Positions 3 to 54,670 of a stretch of DNA of 64,000 nt are shown one piece after another. A program made the translations under genes and the position numbers. Origin of the DNA: a virus. Taxonomy: Duplodnaviria; Caudoviricetes. Under the pieces are notes generated by a model that ran no database searches, was not told where the DNA came from, and saw only the letters and a program-made list of their open reading frames with translations. The DNA lies in IMG/VR virus record IMGVR_UViG_3300025889_000071; one strand, 5' to 3'. Each line of letters begins with the position of its first letter. Positions within the stretch are counted from its first letter, which is position 1.

Positions 3-3000
3 ATAGTTAGGCCATCGGACTATGTTATTTCACCTTCAAATGCCATTTATCAAAAAACAAAGGATTTAGTAGCAGAATTTATATCTGGAGATCCATATGA
101 TTTAGTTAATAAAACTCTTTATCAAAGTGGTGATGAAAATATACCGGAAGCATATTCGCCAGTTTCAAATGTAGAGAAAATATCTACTGGTTCATTAAAT
201 AAGGATTATTATCGAATAACCATAGATGGTTCTTATCTCAAAAAAGAGGGATCAAATACAGAATCAATATATGATAATTTTTCAATACACCCAAAAACAA
301 AATGTATTGGTGAGATTGGTATTGGACAAACATTCATAGATGTTGACTCTACAGTAGGATTTCCAAATTCTGGCTCTTTAGATGTTGTATATAATGATTT
401 CACTACGGATACTATCACATATTCAAACAAGACAATTAATCAATTTTTGGATGTATCAGTAATATCTAAAAGAATTTTAGATGGTTCTGATATAGATTAT
501 TCATCCTTTGCATATTCTGCTGGATTAGGTAGAACTGATGGGATTAAATTAAGAATAAGATCGGTGATAGGTGGATATAATATTCCAAAAGTAACTTATC
601 AACAAAATATTGGTTCTAAGATAAAAATAAAATCTTTAGGAAAAATTGGCAATAAACTTAAAGAAAATAATTGGATATTTAACAATTCCCAATCATATAA
701 TGTGGAGTCTTTGGAATTAATTGACTCTAGAAATTTCGTTTATAGATTAACAACTATTGATGATAATATTCTAAGAGTTGGCGATACTTTGAGATTAAAA
801 TCACTAAATGATGTATTTTTAACTGATGATTTTACAGTTACAACGATAATTAATAATAAAATTTCTTTAATACGTGGAAGTGACGTTGAAAATCCCAACG
901 GAATAGTAAGTGTTAATAGAATTTTAAATAAAGTTAAAACTAATATACACCCACAACTTAGTAAATTTACTGCAAATGTTCAAAATGTTTATATCGATAA
1001 TGATGATGATAGTGTTTTAGTAGCTTCAAATTCTTTGCCGTATTTTGAGTCACCTACAAATCCAGATATTCAAAAAATAATTCTTTCTGGTTTAGTTGCA
1101 AATAATCAAACTACACTTAAAGTTACTGAAGATTTTGATCATAATTTTTTCACTGGAGATTCAATTTATTATACTCCAAATAAAGATAATAATGGTAATG
1201 TGATTAGTAAAATTTTTGATGAAGGTTTATATTTTGTTCATAGAGTTGATTCTAATAATGTAAAGTTGGCAAAAAGTGGATCTGATTTATATAACGAAAA
1301 ATATGTTACAATTGATGATCTTTCCGGAAAAGCAAACGTAGATATTACTAATCATATTATAGAAAAATATGCATTTAATGGGAAGATTATTGAGCCGCAA
1401 AAATTAATCAGAAAAATTCCCAATATCCATAATCAGAGAGATGATGAAGTAAATGAAAAGTCACTTGCCACTAAAGCAGGGGCTACTGGAATTTTTATAA
1501 ATGGTGTTGAAATTTTAAATTATAAGTCTCATAGTTATGTGCATTATGGAGAAATTGAAGAAATTAATCTTACCTCCCCTGGTTTTGGATACGATGTGAT
1601 TAACCCACCACTATTATCAATTTCAGATTCTGTTGGTAGTGGAGCCACTGGAGTCTGTGGCGTGAAAGGAAACTTTGTAGATATTGATTTAATCGATGGG
1701 GGATTTGATTATCTTGATATTCCATCTATTCAAATAACCGGTGGAAATGGAAAATCAGCCAAAGCATCTGCAAATACAACGTTTGTAGATCATACACTCT
1801 CATTTGATTCCTCCAATCTACTCGACATTTCTGTAGATTTTGAATTGAGATCTGGTTTTGGTGGAATTTCAACTGAAACATCAAAAATTGGATTTTCAAC
1901 ATATCATAGATTTAAGAATGGAGAATCTGTAGTATATAAAACTCTTGGAGGAAATGCAGTCACAGGATTGTCAACGGATTCAACATATTATGTAAATGTA
2001 GTTAATGATTATGATATAAAGTTACATTTATCTAAAGGAGATGCATTAGCATCCTCTGGAACTGGTATTAATACAATTTCTTTATCGGATTTTGGAACGG
2101 GTAATCATTCTTTTACTGCAATACCAAAACTATCAGTTTCTTCAATAAGAATTATTGATCCTGGATTTGATTATGAAAATAAAAAGAGAATGTGTTCATC
2201 AGCGGGTATTAATACTTCCATCAATACGATAGATATACTAAATCATGGGTATAAAACTGGCGAAATAATTAGATATTCTTTTAATGAAACATCTATTGGA
2301 GGTCTTTCTACAACAAAGGATTATATAGTAACAACTATTAATAATGATTCCTTTAAATTATCTGATGTTGGAATCGGTTCTGATTTAAAATATTTGTATT
2401 TTAATAGAAACGTCTTTAAAAATTTAACGTCTTCTGGTTCGGGATTACACACTTTCAATTATCCAGAAATTTCTGTAAAAGTTATTGGAAAAGTTGGAGT
2501 AACTTCTATAGGTGAAGATACTTTTGAAGCTAAAGTTCAACCAATAGTTCGTGGTGAGTTAACTTCAATACATTTAACTAATAATGGACAAAATTATGGA
2601 ACTAGTAGAATCTTAAACCTTAAAAGATTGCCAAAGGTAAGTTTAATTAGTGGAACTGATGCTGCACTAAAACCTGTCATACTAAATGGACAAATTGTCA
2701 ATGTCGTAATTTTAAATTCTGGAAAAGATTATACATCTATACCAGATTTGATTGTACGTGGTACAGGAACATCTGGAAAATTAGTACCGATATTAAAAGA
2801 TGGTGCTATTGTTGATGTTAAAATATCCAGACCTGGCGTTGGATATGAGCAAAATTCCACATCAATTGAAGTGTTGCCGGCCGGCAATAATGCAGAATTT
2901 GAATCAGTAATTCAATCGTGGAGAGTGAATGAGGTTCGAAAAAATCTATCAAATGTCAAGGATGATGATATTTTTGTTTCTCCTAGTATGAATGATGGCA

Positions 3001-6000
3001 AAGGATTGCAGTGTTATTTTGCTTATGGCCCAAGAAATTTAAGAAAATTAGTATATTCCACTGATAGGGGTGGGAGAATTTTGTATGGTAGAAATGATCT
3101 AAGAATTGTGAATGGATTAGAGTCTAGCAATATAAACCACTCACCAATTATTGGATGGGCATATGATGGAAGTCCGATATATGGTCCATATGGATACAAG
3201 ACAAATAAAGGAACTGGAGGAGTAACACAACTTAAGAGTGGTTATACATTAAAGTTATCCCCCAATAGACCTCCATTAGTAAATTTTCCTGAAGGATTTT
3301 TTGTTGAGGACTTTGAGTGGAGTTATTCTTCTTCTGAAGATACTCTTGATGAAAATAATGGAAGATTTTGCATAACACCAGAATTTCCAAATGGAATCTA
3401 TGCGTATTTTACAACTTTTGACGCAATACCATCAGAGGATGGGGTATTTAAAAATTTTAAAGCACCCACATTTCCATATGTAATTGGAAATTCATATCAT
3501 AAAACTCCAGATGAGTTTAATTTCAAAAAAAGATCAAATCAGGATGATATAAATTTAAATGATTTTAATATAAGTAGAAATACATATCCATATTTGCTGT
3601 CTAATGATAATAGTGGTTATGATTATCTGGTAGAATCTTACAAATTTACCGATCAAGATCCTACTATTACATCAGTAAATAGGGGAAATATTACATCAAT
3701 TGGTATTGTTAGTGAAGGTATAAATTATCAAGTTGATGATACAGTCGTTCTTGACGCATCGACCACCTCTAGAGATTTTGGGCAAAGTAACAAAGTTTCT
3801 CTGATAGGAGGAGTTGGTGTATCTTCAATATCTTGCGAAACCTTTATCGTACCAAACTTAGAATTTTATCCAAATGGAAGCACTGTAGTAGCTGTACACA
3901 CTACTAACCATAATATTAGTAATAATGAGGCATTGAATGTAGTTGGACTGAGCACTGAAAAATACATTAAACCGGGTCAGTATACTGTTGGTATTTCTTC
4001 ATTAACATTTGAACTGCAAAATACTTTAAATGCTCAAAATATAACCGGAATTGTTACTTACATAAACATTAAGGCTAATACAACTTCATTTTTCTCAGAC
4101 TTAAAGTTTGTAGAACCAAATGATGTATATAATTTATATGCAAATAAGACGTATACTGAATCAGTTCGTGTTCTTCTCCCACAGGTCGGAACTGCAATTA
4201 CAAGCAAGGCTTTGGATCCTGAAAGCAATCCTACAAGATTTACCGATGCTGCCGTATATGACTATATATGGGATAATTATGATGAATTTGATGTTGATGG
4301 TGATGGAGTAGTTTCTTTTAATGATGCGATAGTTATAGTAAGACACCTGTATGGAGACGAGGTTAAGGAAAGGGGTGCTTTTTCTGGAAATCGTATTTTT
4401 TCTACAGGTGGCGGTATTAGTGGAATTGGTTATAGTGGTGTGCCGGCCGCCGCCACAAGAACTACCAACAGAGAAGTGAGAGATTTCTTGGATTTCAGAT
4501 CTTTTCATTCTAGGGAAGGTAATATTGGAGTTTCTACAAATGTAATTACTGGTATACAAACGGGATATCTTTTTTATGGATCAGATCCAGATAATGTTGT
4601 TCGTGGAAAAGTTAGTATTGGCCAATCCGTCAACAGTACATTTGTGGCTGCTGGCACTACAGTGACTGCTATTGGTAAAAATTCTATTACTATCAGCAAC
4701 ACTACAACAAATACAGAAACTCAAGTAGGAACTTCAATTACATTTGGAAATGGATTGTATGATGTTGATGGTAATGGTCAAATAACTGTTTTTAGTGATG
4801 GCATAATGATAGCTAGAGTTTTTGGCCCTAGTGAATTTAAAAATCCATCTGATAATGGCATAGCTGGTTTTGCTACTGATAATACAATTTTTGATACTCT
4901 TAAGGTTTTAAATATAGATCCAGATTTGGGAAGAATTAGAGTATTACGAACAGGTAATGGAACATATAGTGGTGTATTTGGTTCTAACAGTGAACTTGTA
5001 GAAAGATCTAGAAAAGTAGAGATTCCATTCATTGGAATTTCAACAGTTAATGACTCAAGAAAAACCTATGAGTATTATTTTAATCCTACAGAATCCATAG
5101 GAATAGGGGAAGACATTAGTGCAGGTGCAGGTACTACAATTACATTTACGAATCCTGGTGCTGGCCAAACTCAGGTCTTTGTTCCAACCAGAGCAATTTA
5201 TCTTCCATATCATACATTAAGAACTGGTGATAAAGTTGTATATAAGACAAATATTGGAGATACAATAGGTGTATCTACTGTTAGTGGAGGTTCTAGTGTA
5301 CCTCTTACCCAATATTCCGAGTTATATGTTGGAAAAATAAATGACAACTTTATTGGACTTTCTACAGTAAAAGTTTCTGCGGGAACAACGGATGGAATTT
5401 TTGTTGGGGTTACACCAGAAACAGAGCATCATGAATTGCTCTATTTTGTTGGGTTGGGGACAGGTGTATATCACAGTTTAACATTTAATAATCCAGACAC
5501 AGTAACTGGTAATTTAGAAAAGAACATCGTTACTGTTTCAACTTCAAGTACGCATGGATTATCTCTTCTTGATAATGTTTTTGTTGAAGTAAAACCAAAT
5601 ATTAATGAAACAATAAAAGTAAAATATAACAAGAGTATTAGAAAATTAATTGTCAATGAATATGATTATGTCACATCAGGAATTTCTTCCGAAAATAGAA
5701 CAATTTCTATAACAGATCATAAACTTTCAACAGGCCAAAAAGTTATTAATTTTTTAAATACATCTATTAATGATGATTCTTTTAAAGATGAGGGAGAATA
5801 TTATGTATACGTTGTTGATAGAAATACAATCAAGTTAACAAATGAAAAATATGAATTATTCGAAAAAACTCCATCATTTATTGGACTTTCTACTCTTTCT
5901 TCAGGATCTTTATCTTTAATAAATCCCCCCTTAAATCTAGTTAAAAATTCTACGGTTAAATTTGATTTATCGGATTCTTCGTTATCTTATGTTCAAAATA

Positions 6001-25029: not shown

Positions 25030-25037
25030 TATAAATA
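25030..25037 (+). promoter_or_regulatory. T4-type late promoter TATAAATA (gp15)
   Basis: Seen: exact gp55-type consensus in the intergenic gap, 28 nt before the gp15 ATG. Confidence 0.85.
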
Positions 25038-47925: not shown

Positions 47926-49487
47926 TGGCTCAGTGGAATAAAACTACACAAGATTACCTCAATCAAGAGAGAAGTCTATTTGAGGTTTACATGTGTGCCG
48001 ACAGATACGGCAACATTGATGGGTGCAATGGAACTGCGAGTGGTAGTGGTGCATTTGGAGAACAAATTGTATCTCAAATCACCCCAGTCCTTCAACTTGA
48101 TGGTCTGTATGGTTTAAACTCAGATAGATTTGAACTCTACTCATTTGGTACTGGTAGCACTAGTGATGCTAATAATTTGATGACTACATCAACAGGAACT
48201 GGTGCTTATGGTTATGGAGTTGTTCGTTCTAAAAGATCTGTAAGATATCGTCCAGGACAAGGTGCTCTCGCAAGATTCACAGCACAGTTTTCTGGTATTG
48301 CAACAGGATATACACAAAGAGCAGGATTCTTCACACAAGAGCAAGCACTTCAAGTTGGATACAGCACTGAAGGAAGGTTTGGTATTCTTCGTGAGAATGG
48401 TGGTAAAGCTCACATTCATAGATTTACTATCACAACACCTTCAAGTGGCACAGAGAATATAACAGTCACTCTTGCTGGTGTCGCATCCACAGTTACTATT
48501 GGATCAGGAACAACAACACAAAACGCAACTGGTATTGGAACTCATACTTATGCTGGTTGGATTGCCGACTATAAGAATGGTTATATTGATTTCTTATCCA
48601 CAAGCGTCGGTCCAAAAACAGGCACATTCTCTATTGTAAGTAATGGTGACCTGGTAGCTACATCAACAACTTCTCAAACAGGTGTAAATCATACAAGCAA
48701 CTGGACATATCAAGAGGACTGGAACTTTGATACGATGACTGGTGTTGGTGGCACCACCAATCCATCAGGAGTTACATTAGATCCAACCAAACTGAATGTA
48801 TACCAAATCAACTTCCGTTGGTTGGGTGCTGGTGAGATGAGATTTGCTATTGAAAATCCCACAACGGGAGATATGATGCCCGTTCATCATATTCACTATA
48901 CAAACAGGAATAATACTGTTCATTTAGATAATCCATCACTCAAGATTGGATATGTGGCTGCCAATCTGGATGGTAATACTGGTGCTGGTGTAACAGTCTC
49001 TGGCGCATCTATGATGGGTGCGATTGAAGGTGTTATTAATACCACAACCCTTCCAATCGGTGCCTTTAGAACAAAGACTGGTGGAATGAATAGTACTGGC
49101 ACAAAATTCCACCTGATTACCATTAAGGGCGGTATGATTGTCAATAACAAAATTAATACCAGAGAACTTATAGTAAAGAAAATTAGTGCTCTAACAACAT
49201 CGGCAGGAACAGCACCTTGTTTTATCTATCTGTATATTGATCCAATAACAGCAGATCCTTTAGATTTCACACCTCTTGGAAATGCTTCTTCATATTCAAC
49301 AACTGATACAACAATCACTGGTGGAGATCCAGCAGCAGTTTTTTGTGTTACATCGGGTGCTCCAGAAACAATTGATCTTGATGAGTTGAGAATTGTTTTA
49401 CCACCACAAAGACTATTCACGCTAGCAATTTCTTCCAGTGCTGTTCTACAAAATGCAGATGCTGCAATAACATTTGTTGAGGATTAA
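47925..49487 (+). CDS. Putative virion structural protein (520 aa, Thr/Gly-rich beta protein)
   Basis: Seen: 'GAFGEQIVSQITPVLQLDGLYG', 'VRYRPGQG', 'LDPTKLNVYQINFRWLGAG'. Function not assignable. Confidence 0.6.
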   Translation: MAQWNKTTQDYLNQERSLFEVYMCADRYGNIDGCNGTASGSGAFGEQIVSQITPVLQLDGLYGLNSDRFELYSFGTGSTSDANNLMTTSTGTGAYGYGVVRSKRSVRYRPGQGALARFTAQFSGIATGYTQRAGFFTQEQALQVGYSTEGRFGILRENGGKAHIHRFTITTPSSGTENITVTLAGVASTVTIGSGTTTQNATGIGTHTYAGWIADYKNGYIDFLSTSVGPKTGTFSIVSNGDLVATSTTSQTGVNHTSNWTYQEDWNFDTMTGVGGTTNPSGVTLDPTKLNVYQINFRWLGAGEMRFAIENPTTGDMMPVHHIHYTNRNNTVHLDNPSLKIGYVAANLDGNTGAGVTVSGASMMGAIEGVINTTTLPIGAFRTKTGGMNSTGTKFHLITIKGGMIVNNKINTRELIVKKISALTTSAGTAPCFIYLYIDPITADPLDFTPLGNASSYSTTDTTITGGDPAAVFCVTSGAPETIDLDELRIVLPPQRLFTLAISSSAVLQNADAAITFVED

Positions 49488-49500
49488 AAGGAGTTTTGTT

Positions 49501-50379
49501 ATGAGTGACGTATATCTTGGCAATCCATTATTAAAAAAAGCAAATACTGCGATTGAATTTACTCAAGAACAGATTGAGGAGTTTATTAAATGTCAGAGTG
49601 ACCCAGTATATTTTGCAAAAAATTATGTGAAGATTGTGACTCTTGATAAAGGATTACAACCTTTTGAGTTATACCCATTTCAAGAAAAGTTAGTTAATAA
49701 CTTTCATAATAATAGATTTAATATCTGCAAGATGCCACGGCAGACAGGTAAATCAACAACTGTGGTTTCTTTTCTTTTACACTATGCAGTATTTAATGAT
49801 AATGTCAATATAGGCATTCTAGCAAACAAAGCTGCAACCGCAAGAGAACTTCTTGATAGGTTACAAACTGCATACGAGAACTTACCAAAGTGGATGCAGC
49901 AAGGTATCATAGCATGGAATAAAGGTAGTTTGGAGTTAGAAAATGGCAGTAAGATATTGGCAGCTTCTACATCTGCAAGTGCTGTCCGAGGCATGTCGTT
50001 CAATATCCTCTTTCTCGACGAATTCGCCTTCGTCCCTAATCACATCGCTGACTCCTTCTTTGCATCTGTTTATCCTACTATTACTTCTGGTAAAAGCACA
50101 AAAGTCATCATAGTTTCAACGCCACATGGTATGAATCATTTCTACCGTATGTGGCACGATGCGGAAAAAGGTAAGAACGAATATATTCCCACAGATGTTC
50201 ATTGGTCAGAAGTTCCAGGTAGAGATTCTAAATGGAAAGAACAGACTATTGCAAACACATCAGAGCAGCAGTTTAAAGTTGAGTTTGAATGTTTGGATGG
50301 AAATACATCGATTGAAATTTTAGATGAGAATAATACCATTCAAAAAATTTCAATGGAAAACTTATATAAACGGTTGTGA
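49501..50379 (+). CDS. gp17: Terminase large subunit, N-terminal part (263 aa) fused to a 29-aa N-intein
   Basis: Seen: Walker A 'PRQTGKST', Walker B 'ILFLDEFAF', 'IIVSTPHGMNHFY', then '...KVEFE|CLDGNT...LYKRL*'. RBS AAGGAG precedes ATG 49501. Confidence 0.93.
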   Translation: MSDVYLGNPLLKKANTAIEFTQEQIEEFIKCQSDPVYFAKNYVKIVTLDKGLQPFELYPFQEKLVNNFHNNRFNICKMPRQTGKSTTVVSFLLHYAVFNDNVNIGILANKAATARELLDRLQTAYENLPKWMQQGIIAWNKGSLELENGSKILAASTSASAVRGMSFNILFLDEFAFVPNHIADSFFASVYPTITSGKSTKVIIVSTPHGMNHFYRMWHDAEKGKNEYIPTDVHWSEVPGRDSKWKEQTIANTSEQQFKVEFECLDGNTSIEILDENNTIQKISMENLYKRL

Positions 50380-50390
50380 GTTTTTTGGAT

Positions 50391-50398
50391 TATAAATA
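50391..50398 (+). promoter_or_regulatory. T4-type late promoter TATAAATA (homing endonuclease and IntC-terL)
   Basis: Seen: exact consensus between the IntN stop (50379) and the HEG ATG (50408). Confidence 0.85.
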
Positions 50399-50407
50399 AT
50401 TAAAAAA

Positions 50408-50977
50408 ATGTATTATATTTACTTTCTTAAAGACTTGGATGGAAAAGTCAAATATGTTGGACAGACTCAAAATTTAGATTCTAGAAGAAGAGAACATAAA
50501 AGAAATAAACCACCACATAAATTTGAAATAAGTGAGCAGATAGATATTTCAGAAAAAGCAAAAGAAGCAGAAATTTTTCATATAGAAAAATTTGATACTT
50601 TTAAAAATGGATGGAATAAATCTACTGGTGGAGAAGGATTTGATGACTACGAAAGAAAAGGAATTGGTGGAGCAAAAAAGGGAACTATTCCTTGGAATAA
50701 AGGAGTCAAAAATTGTTTCTCTGAAGAGACTATAGAAAAAATGAGCAATTCTAGAAAAGGTAGAGTTTTTAGTAGAAAAATAAATGACGATCAAATAAGA
50801 GAGATAAGGAAACTATATAATGAAAAACCAGAATTACAAAATGTCGGTGCAATTATGAAAAATGGTAAAAGATTATCATATATTCAGGCATTTTGTAAGG
50901 AATATGCAAAAGATTATAATTTAACTCCACAAGGGATAAAAAGAATTATTTTAAAGGAATGCTGGACAAATGTTTAA
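50408..50977 (+). CDS. Free-standing GIY-YIG homing endonuclease with NUMOD3-like DNA-binding motif
   Basis: Seen: 'YYIYFL...VKYVGQT' (GIY-YIG variant), 'RRREH', conserved Glu and 'GWNKSTGG', 'PWNKG', 'SEETIEKMSNSRKG'. Confidence 0.88.
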   Translation: MYYIYFLKDLDGKVKYVGQTQNLDSRRREHKRNKPPHKFEISEQIDISEKAKEAEIFHIEKFDTFKNGWNKSTGGEGFDDYERKGIGGAKKGTIPWNKGVKNCFSEETIEKMSNSRKGRVFSRKINDDQIREIRKLYNEKPELQNVGAIMKNGKRLSYIQAFCKEYAKDYNLTPQGIKRIILKECWTNV

Positions 50978-52133
50978 ACTTAATAAAAATATTAAAGTAA
51001 AAACTCCTAGTGGATTTAAATATTTTTCTGGAATTCAAAAAGTTTACAAACCATTTTATCATTGGATAATATTTGATGATGGAACAGAAATAAAATGCTC
51101 TGACAATCATTCTTTTGGGAAAGAACAAATAAAAGCATCAATGATTAAAGTTGATGATTTTTTTCAGGGGAAAAAAGTAGTTTATAATGAAATAGTAGAA
51201 GAAGAAATATACCTTTATGACTTACTTGATGTTGGTGAAGATAATCTTTATTTTTCAAATGGAATAATATCTCACAATTGTGAGTTTCTAGGGTCTGTTG
51301 ATACACTTATTGCTCCTAGCAAATTGAGAAGTTTAATTTATGATCATCCTAAAGTAAGAAATAAAGGTCTTGATGTTTATGAAGACCCCAAAAATGACCA
51401 CGACTATTTGATGACAGTTGATGTTGCTAGAGGAGTGAGTGAGGATTACTCTGCATTCGTAGTTACTGACATAACAGAATTTCCACATAAAGTAGTTGCA
51501 AAGTATAGAAATAATGAAATCAAACCAATGCTATTTCCGAATATCATATATGAAGTAGCAAAAAATTATAATGGAGCCTATATTCTTTGTGAGGTAAATG
51601 ATATTGGAGATCAGGTTGCAAGTATTCTTCAATATGATTTAGAGTATCAAAATCTTCTCATGTGCTCAATGAGAGGAAGAGCTGGTCAAATTGTTGGTCA
51701 AGGATTTTCTGGAAAGAAAACTCAACTGGGAGTTAAGATGTCCAAGACCGTAAAGAAGGTTGGGTCATTAAACCTCAAGACAATGATTGAGGAGGATAAA
51801 TTAATCTTCAATGACTATGAAATTATTTCGGAACTTACAACTTTTATCTCAAAACATAACTCATTTGAGGCTGAAGAAGGGTGTAATGATGACCTTGCAA
51901 TGTGTCTTGTTATCTATGCATGGTTGGTAGCACAAGACTACTTTAAGGAACTTACTGATCAAGATGTTCGTAAGAGATTATATGAGGAGCAGAGAAATCA
52001 AATTGAACAAGACATGGCACCATTTGGGTTTATATCTGATGGTCTAGATTCAAATTCATTTGTGGATGCTGAAGGTGATCGATGGTACACTGATGAATAT
52101 GGTGATCGTTCATATATGTGGGATTACCTTTAA
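50970..52133 (+). CDS. gp17: 103-aa C-intein fused to the terminase large subunit C-terminal nuclease part (284 aa)
   Basis: Seen: '...SHN|CEFLGSVDTLI', RNase H-like 'MTVDVARGVSEDYSAF', 'EAEEGCNDDLAMCLV'. Confidence 0.93.
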   Translation: MFKLNKNIKVKTPSGFKYFSGIQKVYKPFYHWIIFDDGTEIKCSDNHSFGKEQIKASMIKVDDFFQGKKVVYNEIVEEEIYLYDLLDVGEDNLYFSNGIISHNCEFLGSVDTLIAPSKLRSLIYDHPKVRNKGLDVYEDPKNDHDYLMTVDVARGVSEDYSAFVVTDITEFPHKVVAKYRNNEIKPMLFPNIIYEVAKNYNGAYILCEVNDIGDQVASILQYDLEYQNLLMCSMRGRAGQIVGQGFSGKKTQLGVKMSKTVKKVGSLNLKTMIEEDKLIFNDYEIISELTTFISKHNSFEAEEGCNDDLAMCLVIYAWLVAQDYFKELTDQDVRKRLYEEQRNQIEQDMAPFGFISDGLDSNSFVDAEGDRWYTDEYGDRSYMWDYL

Positions 52134-52369
52134 TGGATTTAGATGGTCAAATAAAACTTGGTCATTTACTTTTAAATGATAGGAGATGTAGAATATGTGG
52201 AGAAACTAAAAATTTAATAGAGTCATTTTATAGAACCAGAAAAGATAGAGGAGCTGTAGCATCGTCATATTCATATGAATGTAAAGACTGCACAAAGCAA
52301 AGAATAAAGAAACAGAGAAAAAAAATTAACTCAATATCTAAAATTAAAGACGTATATCCCGATTGGTAG
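52133..52369 (+). CDS. Small zinc-finger-like protein (78 aa)
   Basis: Seen: CxxC...CxxC ('CRICGETK...YECKDC'); ATG overlaps the terL stop (TAATG). Confidence 0.7.
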   Translation: MDLDGQIKLGHLLLNDRRCRICGETKNLIESFYRTRKDRGAVASSYSYECKDCTKQRIKKQRKKINSISKIKDVYPDW

Positions 52370-52450
52370 CGTTCACGTCGAACTTCCCCAGTGTAAATTT
52401 GCTTTTTAATAAATATTTTTTAGATAAACTGAAAAAATACGGAGAGAAAA

Positions 52451-54670
52451 ATGGCAACTCCTCAATTATCTCCCGGAGTACTTACGAGAGAGGTTGACTT
52501 AACAGTAGGAAGAGTTGATAATGTTTTAGATAATATTGGTGCTATTGCAGGTCCTTTCCCTATTGGTCCAGTCGATTTTCCTATCGATATTGCTACGGAA
52601 CAAGACTTAATCAATGTTTTTGGAAAACCTCTTTCAACAGATGCTCAATATGAATACTGGATGAGTGCATCCTCATTCTTGTCATATGGAGGAGTTCTGA
52701 AAGTTGTAAGATGTGGAGATGAAGACCTCAACAATGCAAATGCCGGTGTTGGAATTGCATCCACTAATGCACTTCAAGTTCTTAACTATGATGACTACAG
52801 TGCAAATCACTATGAGGCAACTAATTTTACATATGCTGCAAAAAATCCAGGTTCATGGGCGAATGGATTAAAAGTTTGCACAATTGATGACTTTGCAGAC
52901 CAAACTATTGGAATTAGCACTGTAAGTCCGCTACTTGCCGGTGCTCAAATTGGATATGGTGTTACCGCAGGTATTTCAACTACTCTTGCTGGAGTTGGTA
53001 CAGAATCTACGCTTGGTGGTTACCTCAAAGGAATTATCGTAGGAGTTACCACAGATGGTACAAATGGCAATTCAACGATTGATGTAAAGATTGTTTCAAG
53101 AGTTTCTGCTGGTGGAACTGAAACAGCAATAACATATGCAGAAGGTTCTCCGACCAGATCTTTTGATACTTCGGATGAATTGTATTTTGTTAATAATTCT
53201 GGTATTAATACTGGATTATCTGCGGATGTTGGAGCATACACACCAGCTACTTCTGTTGATTGGTATGATCAACAAGTCTTGACTTTAGAAAATGCCACGA
53301 TTTTCTGGAAAACTATTGCACCAAGACCAATAACCAATCAATATGTATTGGATAGAAATGGTAAAGGTGATGGATTACACCTTGCAGTTGTTGATGACTA
53401 TGGACTAGTTACCGGCAATCAAGGAACACTTATTGAAAAGCATGTTGGCCTTTCAAAAGCACTTGATGCGGTTTCAACAGTAAATGCACCACAAAAAATA
53501 TATTACAAGCAGTATATTGCAGATTTCTCTGCCAATGTTTATGCTGGATATAATCCATCACAAGCAGAAGATACATATCATGGTACTGCACCAAGAGCTG
53601 TTGGATTCTCTACAGATTTTACTGCAGTAACAACAGGAAATGGTTTGTGGGGACAAACAGCACAAGATATAACATTCTCTGCAATTGGAAATGTAACATA
53701 CTCTCTTGCTGGTGGTGAAGATTATTCTTCCGGTGTTCCTGAATCTGGATCAAATGGTAGAATGAAGGCAGATTTGGGCCAATTAATGTCTGCTTATCGT
53801 CTTTTCAGTAATAGAGACGAAATTGCGGCGGATTATTTAATCATGGGTCCTGGAGGTTCTACTGTATTTGAATCACAAGCAAAAGCAAATCAACTTATCT
53901 CTATTGCAGAAGAAAGAAAGGATTGTATAGCAGTCATTGGTCCTCACAGAACAGATCTTGTTGGCCAAACAAACACAACGACTCAAACTAATAATCTTAT
54001 CAGATACTTTGGTGATATAAATTCTTCATCATATGCAGTATTTGATAGTGGTTATAAGTACACATATGATAGATTCAATAATGAGTTTAGATACATTCCA
54101 GTCAATGCTGATATTGCTGGTTTAATGTGCCGCACAAATATTACGGCATATCCTTGGTTCTCTCCTGCTGGACAGCAAAGAGGCATTATTAATAATGCCA
54201 TTAAACTTGCATATAATCCAAATAAAGCACAAAGAGATCAACTTTATCCTAAGAGAGTTAACTCCATTATCACCAAACCTGGTGTAGGAACAATGCTTTT
54301 TGGAGATAAAACTGCTCTTGGTTATGCTTCTGCTTTTGATAAAATTAATGTTCGTCGTCTTTTCATCACAGTTGAACAGGCACTTCAAAGAGCTGCTGAA
54401 GCACAGTTATTCGAACTTAATGATGAACTGACAAGAGCTAACTTCAGAAATATCATTGAACCTTATCTCAGAGATATTGAAGCTAAGAGAGGAATTTATG
54501 GATTCCTTGTTGTATGTGATACAACAAACAATACTCCAGATGTCATTGATAACAATGAATTTAGAGCAGACATCTTTCTGAAACCTGCCAAGTCTATTAA
54601 TTATGTAACACTCACTTTTGTTGCAACTCGCACAGGAGTAAGTTTTGAAGAAGTAGCAGGTAGAGTTTGA
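52451..54670 (+). CDS. gp18: Tail sheath protein gp18
   Basis: Seen: 'LSPGVLTREVDLT', 'YAAKNPGSWANG', 'WFSPAGQQRG', 'INVRRLFI', 'FLKPAKSINYVTLTFVATRTGVSFEEV'. Confidence 0.97.
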   Translation: MATPQLSPGVLTREVDLTVGRVDNVLDNIGAIAGPFPIGPVDFPIDIATEQDLINVFGKPLSTDAQYEYWMSASSFLSYGGVLKVVRCGDEDLNNANAGVGIASTNALQVLNYDDYSANHYEATNFTYAAKNPGSWANGLKVCTIDDFADQTIGISTVSPLLAGAQIGYGVTAGISTTLAGVGTESTLGGYLKGIIVGVTTDGTNGNSTIDVKIVSRVSAGGTETAITYAEGSPTRSFDTSDELYFVNNSGINTGLSADVGAYTPATSVDWYDQQVLTLENATIFWKTIAPRPITNQYVLDRNGKGDGLHLAVVDDYGLVTGNQGTLIEKHVGLSKALDAVSTVNAPQKIYYKQYIADFSANVYAGYNPSQAEDTYHGTAPRAVGFSTDFTAVTTGNGLWGQTAQDITFSAIGNVTYSLAGGEDYSSGVPESGSNGRMKADLGQLMSAYRLFSNRDEIAADYLIMGPGGSTVFESQAKANQLISIAEERKDCIAVIGPHRTDLVGQTNTTTQTNNLIRYFGDINSSSYAVFDSGYKYTYDRFNNEFRYIPVNADIAGLMCRTNITAYPWFSPAGQQRGIINNAIKLAYNPNKAQRDQLYPKRVNSIITKPGVGTMLFGDKTALGYASAFDKINVRRLFITVEQALQRAAEAQLFELNDELTRANFRNIIEPYLRDIEAKRGIYGFLVVCDTTNNTPDVIDNNEFRADIFLKPAKSINYVTLTFVATRTGVSFEEVAGRV

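Follow-up and report, generated by a model that had tools for sequence, protein, structure and literature searches.

Fractured genes were defined by Dassa, London, Stoddard, Schueler-Furman and Pietrokovski in 2009 (PMC2677866), who also listed a gp17-like Myoviridae terminase whose break lies at an unusual position and whose C-terminal intein fragment (IntC) is long. Two naturally and atypically split inteins of the terminase large subunit (TerL), AceL-TerL and GOS-TerL, underlie the engineered consensus Cat (PMC11766414). The N-terminal intein fragment (IntN) and IntC measure 25 and 104 amino acids in AceL-TerL, 37 and 115 in GOS-TerL, and 30 and 104 in Cat, and all three inteins are active in trans-splicing in vitro (PMC11766414). 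For this family PMC11766414 cites Thiel 2014, Bachmann & Mootz 2015 and Stevens 2018, and it reports the Cat consensus as a fast splicer. Here, we analysed a stretch of 64,000 nucleotides (nt), referred to as the window, from the IMG/VR virus record IMGVR_UViG_3300025889_000071 (Duplodnaviria; Caudoviricetes). The terL gene (gp17) in this window, which belongs to a T4-like cyanomyovirus, is very probably a fractured gene whose protein halves would be rejoined by trans-splicing of a split intein.

The list of open reading frames (ORFs) and their translations places terL on two ORFs, with a GIY-YIG gene between the halves, as follows:

49501..50289, + strand: terL N-extein, 263 codons, ATPase domain, ending ...KVEFE; Pfam Terminase_6N, E 1.3e-23
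50290..50379, + strand: IntN, 29 codons (50290-50376, beginning with Cys1, CLDGNT...LYKRL) and the TGA stop at 50377-50379
50391..50398, + strand: TATAAATA motif, resembling a T4-type late promoter, 9 nt 5′ of the endonuclease ATG
50408..50977, + strand: free-standing GIY-YIG homing-endonuclease gene, 189 amino acids, isoelectric point 9.5; PF01541
50970..51278, + strand: IntC, 103 codons, MFKLNKNIK...IISHN, with blocks B, F and G
51279..52133, + strand: terL C-extein, 284 codons and a stop (52131-52133), starting from Cys+1 with CEFLGS, RNaseH-like nuclease domain; Terminase_6C, E 3.4e-16

The first ORF runs from the ATG at 49501 to the stop at 50377-50379 and is preceded by AAGGAG, 8 nt 5′ of its ATG. 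Its extein contains the Walker A motif PRQTGKST at residue 79, the Walker B motif LFLDEF at residue 170 and the sequence VSTPHG at residue 205. A spacer of 28 nt separates the IntN stop from the endonuclease ATG, while the third ORF (387 amino acids, ATG at 50970) begins inside the preceding gene, so that the start of IntC overlaps the endonuclease stop region by 8 nt (ATGTTTAA). Together, IntN, the endonuclease gene and IntC form a cassette of 991 bp that interrupts terL behind codon 263, where the ATPase domain nears its end and the nuclease domain is still 45 residues away. The G+C content of the cassette is 24-28%, compared with 35-37% for the exteins. Because the cassette cuts terL in two, TerL would need protein splicing for its rejoining, and the joined exteins give a TerL of 547 amino acids with the junction KVEFE-CEFLGS. 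A first-pass annotation made from the sequence had described this layout (a 29-residue IntN after KVEFE, an ORF starting MFKLNKNIK and an intein ending at SHN/C, where the slash marks the intein boundary), and every element lies at the position that it gave. Its 547-residue product agrees at the junction with uninterrupted cyanophage TerL, and the GIY-YIG gene that it placed between the halves scores above the Pfam cut-off for PF01541. The annotation had further spoken of an intact natural locus in genomic context; both exteins are indeed complete, and terL is flanked by ~49 kb and ~12 kb of phage genome.

The general architecture is that of the fractured genes of Dassa et al., which likewise possess co-oriented halves ending or starting with split-intein parts, overlapping ORFs, and a free-standing endonuclease ORF of the GIY-YIG or Vsr-like type that separates the halves and shares their strand (PMC2677866). 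In contrast to the complete locus of the window, the terminase locus in that study, from Lake Gatun, is incomplete and has a C part of 122 amino acids. The intein itself is closest to Cat. IntC matched chain B of PDB entry 6DSL (Consensus engineered intein CatC) with an E-value of 2.4e-55 over 105 residues, and by a hand count on the printed alignment the two are ~84% identical. When IntN was compared together with the three preceding extein residues (EFE), it matched chain A of the same entry (CatN) with an E-value of 7.2e-9, IntN being ~66% identical. Similarity of this degree far exceeds what chance would give. Since both fragments match the Cat chains, the intein is a naturally occurring representative of the AceL-TerL / GOS-TerL / Cat family. 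This direct match to crystal-structure chains confirms the closeness to that group which the first-pass annotation had proposed, and its statement that the class was already known is supported by the gp17-like fractured terminase listed in 2009 (PMC2677866).

The window intein shares with AceL-TerL, GOS-TerL and Cat the gp17-type TerL host and the combination of a short IntN with a long IntC (29 and 103 residues here), divided just past block A as is typical of the atypically split TerL inteins. The class 1 catalytic set is present, consisting of Cys1, the block B His, the penultimate His, the terminal Asn and Cys+1, and block B (S-D-N-H), block F (YLYDLLDVG) and block G (SHN) are all located within IntC. 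The Cys1/Cys+1 chemistry is the same as in AceL and Cat, and the exteins used in the Cat crystal constructs, EFE at positions -3 to -1 and CE at +1 and +2, are identical to those of the window terL. Whereas Cat is a consensus, the window intein occurs naturally, within a long phage contig.

A megablast comparison with 50,697 deposited phage records matched T4-like cyanomyoviruses only, and only over the two exteins. The best match was Synechococcus phage S-SCSM1, whose TerL of 550 amino acids is uninterrupted. The inferred spliced TerL is identical to it at 491 of 547 positions, and the two proteins are colinear, without a gap at the junction, where both read KVEFECEFLGS. The motif (K/R)(V/I)EFECEFLGS is common to eight intein-less cyanophage TerLs, and Cys+1 is therefore native to the host TerL. 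Among deposited phages, the best matches of the N-extein are Bellamy, S-SKS1 and S-SM2 (83-84.5% at the nucleotide level), none of which gave a megablast match to the C-extein, whose nearest relatives are S-SCSM1 and marine virus AG-345-F15. The differing best matches of the two exteins suggest that a recombination boundary may lie at the cassette.

In metagenomes, relatives are abundant. The IntC region is represented in 291 metagenome protein clusters, most of them at 83-100% identity, and the cassette is found on at least 112 IMG/VR contigs. Eighty loci were examined in detail for layout and conservation, and nearly all of them keep the order N-extein, IntN, endonuclease, IntC and C-extein together with the 8-nt overlap. 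The exact proteins of the window recur as well: 11 contigs carry the N half, 21 the endonuclease and 20 the C half, and the longest contig measures 215 kb. IntN is 29 residues long in 71 of 72 related loci, and across the 72 homologues (42 distinct) Cys1, L2, G4 and T6 of block A as well as L-Y near the end are invariant. The 81 homologues of IntC (44 distinct) align without gaps, with EIKCS-NHSFG, YLYDLLDVG, SHN and Cys+1 all invariant. The median ratio of nonsynonymous to synonymous substitution rates (dN/dS) amounts to 0.07 for the N-extein, 0.31 for IntN, 0.16 for the endonuclease, 0.08 for IntC and 0.12 for the C-extein. Every part of the locus is thus under purifying, protein-level selection.

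Residues 1-67 of the endonuclease match the Pfam GIY-YIG domain PF01541 with 33.1 bits (cut-off 22.6), and the protein as a whole matches the homing endonuclease family PHROG 314 (E 1.9e-18). It displays the motifs YIY...YVGQT...R-x-x-H...E-I...GWN, and the GIY, YIG, R, H, E and N positions are conserved in 48 distinct homologues. The score for NUMOD3, 19.4 bits, falls just under the cut-off of 20.4; the C-terminal half is conserved and shared with the endonuclease of Vibrio phage VP-1. A comparison of the endonuclease with PDB sequences gave no match. The reading frame is free of internal stops in 70 of 71 endonuclease homologues. Two of the loci have lost the gene, while both intein halves look intact there. 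In locus L078 (2873-3321), just 11 nt, TGAGGTAAGAAATG, lie between the IntN stop and the IntC ATG, and they contain GAGG, a good Shine-Dalgarno sequence. In locus L012 (146-630), all that remains of the endonuclease gene is its final ~35 nt. These two losses indicate that the split intein can persist without the nuclease, and the gp41 (gp41-7) locus of Dassa et al., which has no endonuclease, provides a parallel.

From the anatomy, family membership, conservation and selection of the locus, we infer the following course of events. Two chains would be made, TerL-N-IntN of 33.4 kDa and IntC-TerL-C of 44.8 kDa, and docking of the 29-residue IntN into the nearly complete 103-residue IntC would finish the HINT fold. 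Class 1 splicing would then proceed through a thioester at Cys1, transfer to Cys+1, cyclisation of Asn103 and an S-to-N shift, whereby the exteins become joined. The predicted product is a TerL of 547 amino acids and 62.7 kDa with the native junction ...KVEFE-CEFLGS..., and its junction peptide would be VEFECEFLGSVDTLIAPSK. The GIY-YIG enzyme would act as the homing nuclease of the cassette and most likely cuts the intein-less terL of co-infecting phages, after which repair of the cut gene would copy the cassette in. The cassette probably possesses its own late promoter, and translation of the C half is probably coupled to that of the endonuclease ORF.

Splicing would be dispensable if the terminase worked in two pieces, with the intein halves serving as a non-covalent clamp between the ATPase and nuclease chains, as in NrdA of Aeh1. 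Aeh1 nrdA (PMC3045599; cited in PMC2677866) is also an essential gene of a T4-like phage cut by a free-standing homing-endonuclease gene (mobE); however, it has no intein, its halves assemble non-covalently, and it thus provides an example of a fractured gene that works without an intein. The position of the break in terL, close to the Terminase_6N/Terminase_6C boundary, would also suit such an arrangement. However, Cys1, the block B His, the terminal His-Asn and Cys+1 are invariant among 42 distinct IntN and 44 distinct IntC sequences, whereas binding alone would not require invariant catalytic nucleophiles. We therefore consider a mere clamp very unlikely, and the ~84% identity of the intein to the consensus reported as a fast splicer points in the same direction.

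In T4-like phages, GIY-YIG genes often reside in introns (PMC2677866), which raises the question of whether RNA splicing could excise the 991-bp insert as a group I intron carrying such a gene, as in T4 td/I-TevI, its likeness to an intein being coincidental. The chance of this is practically negligible, since a search of positions 49000-52600 for group I and group II introns or any other Rfam family gave no match at E <= 1, the terL frame stays open through the flanking parts of the insert, which match intein chains of known structure (E 2.4e-55 and 7e-9), and IntC is under strong protein-level selection (dN/dS 0.08); an untranslated intron RNA would explain neither of the last two findings. 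It is also highly improbable that the gene is dead or an assembly artefact, with the functional terminase encoded elsewhere. While the window is part of a genome and a second terL outside it is conceivable, dozens of independent contigs, drawn from many metagenomes, show the same layout, 11-21 contigs carry the exact proteins, and purifying selection on both exteins is strong (dN/dS 0.07 and 0.12). Furthermore, terL is found where gp17 normally lies, with a virion protein gene on one side and the endonuclease VII and tail-sheath genes on the other, as in S-SCSM1.

The comparison of related loci bears on the mobility of the cassette. Pairwise distances among IntN, endonuclease and IntC are correlated with Mantel r of 0.72-0.88, compared with 0.42-0.50 against the exteins. 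The synonymous divergence (dS) is ~0.8 for the cassette vs ~1.3 for the exteins, and the composition-corrected third-position similarity is 0.53-0.56 vs 0.32-0.39. This pattern agrees with movement of the whole cassette from one phage lineage to another, presumably by homing.

With regard to expression, the TATAAATA motif, which we take to be the T4 late-promoter consensus, is kept exactly in 68 of 70 endonuclease-carrying spacers and may function as a promoter. If used, it would leave a very short leader before the endonuclease ORF, for which no obvious Shine-Dalgarno sequence is seen. The sequence AAGGA is located 11 nt 5′ of the start of the C half. No significant hairpin was detected between IntN and the endonuclease (RNA fold z-score 0.01), and no terminator-like site was found on the + strand in 49200-52600. 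Read-through of the locus from upstream is also likely.

Several observations weigh against the proposed course of splicing, late expression and homing. Position 3 of IntN is Ser or Gly in all relatives examined, Ser3/Asp5 variants being among them, but Asp in the window, whose IntN also has Asn5 and is unique in both residues; the exact Asp3-bearing N half nonetheless recurs on 11 contigs. Taken alone, TATAAATA is not above chance in a window of 35% G+C, as 4 copies are present on the + strand in 64 kb. The low dS of the cassette is partly confounded by extreme A+T bias (G+C content at third codon positions 0.14-0.19). Among 19 intein-plus loci, no gradient of synonymous identity toward the junction, as expected from co-conversion, was observed, the third-position identity being flat at 0.45-0.60. 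The 90 nt around the junction revealed no consistent difference between 8 intein-minus and 57 distinct intein-plus alleles. Because both a co-conversion gradient and a site signature are missing, recent homing is not demonstrated.

The cassette might be more than a selfish element and have been domesticated as a control point of DNA packaging, although we regard this as unlikely. Under domestication, the C half of TerL would be made only via the cassette late promoter and translational coupling to the endonuclease, and active terminase would arise only after Cys-dependent trans-splicing, a step that might be sensitive to light, temperature or redox state in the infected cyanobacterium. Where infections are mixed, competitors that lack the cassette could, in addition, have their essential terL cut by the endonuclease.

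More distant relatives of the intein were found among deposited phages. IntC gave only four distant matches in the 50,697 records, at 33-35% identity, and none of them from a cyanophage. In Vibrio phage VP-1 (MH363700.1, Ackermannviridae; locus L002), TerL carries an insertion at the same site (..QEYD/C.. and ..SHN/CSFLGSVGTL) with the same atypical split. Its IntC and TerL-C are 38% identical to the window counterpart, and its GIY-YIG endonuclease is homologous to the window enzyme over the whole length (E 7e-9). The two loci differ in that a single ORF of VP-1 encodes IntN fused to the endonuclease, with the ORF for IntC and TerL-C (2902-4179) overlapping it by ~150 nt, and in that VP-1 contains a second, contiguous mini-intein at Walker A (SGK/C...SHN/T); the terL region spans 837-4179. 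The VP-1 record annotates no intein and uses only the labels 'terminase large subunit' and 'terminase like family protein'.

The TerL mini-inteins of Vibrio phage vB_VmeM-32 and Desulfovibrio phage SRB7757 possess HINT domains that are 34-35% identical to IntC, and their first ~30 residues resemble IntN (CV(S/T)GDTMVTV...). In contrast to the window intein, both are contiguous, lack an endonuclease and occupy the Walker B site (..DE/C...SHN/CAFI). The terL genes are located at 1102-3216 in vB_VmeM-32 (locus L091) and at 1703-3835 in SRB7757 (locus L092). The annotated TerL of vB_VmeM-32 begins inside a further intein-like stretch ending ..IASHN/TT; its start may have been mis-called, or a further piece may be encoded elsewhere. 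A contiguous, unsplit intein at the TerL site of the window was not found among proteins of 679-2000 amino acids, which is weak evidence.

The type of element, its mechanism and its uses are already established, and the locus raises no new question of biology. Metagenomes commonly contain the cassette, and a homologous one is present in the deposited cultured phage VP-1, while the engineered consensus of the same intein family, Cat, is already a protein-engineering tool. What the sequences would add is an essential phage motor protein, in a widespread marine cyanomyovirus group, that appears to depend on protein trans-splicing. The metagenome-derived AceL/GOS/Cat family is thereby placed in a natural setting that comprises the gene order, a likely promoter and the translational overlap, as well as derivatives that lack the endonuclease and a distantly related cassette in a cultured Vibrio phage. 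As material for protein engineering, the loci offer dozens of natural variants of the 29-residue IntN (42 distinct) that pair with a highly conserved IntC.

Within the 64-kb window, no other inteins or endonuclease paralogues were found by tblastn and a scan for the block G pattern. The further copies of TATAAATA, at 25030, 56991 and 58171, are all on the + strand, with none on the - strand, and represent possible late promoters. The gene order around terL is that of S-SCSM1, namely virion protein, terL, a small endonuclease VII-like gene and tail sheath. The small gene corresponds to a Cys-rich ORF of 83 amino acids at 52118-52369 (+ strand), which overlaps the terL stop by 16 nt and matches phrog_4723 (E 1.8e-34). 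The same small gene lies 3′ of terL in S-SCSM1 and SynMITS9220M01.

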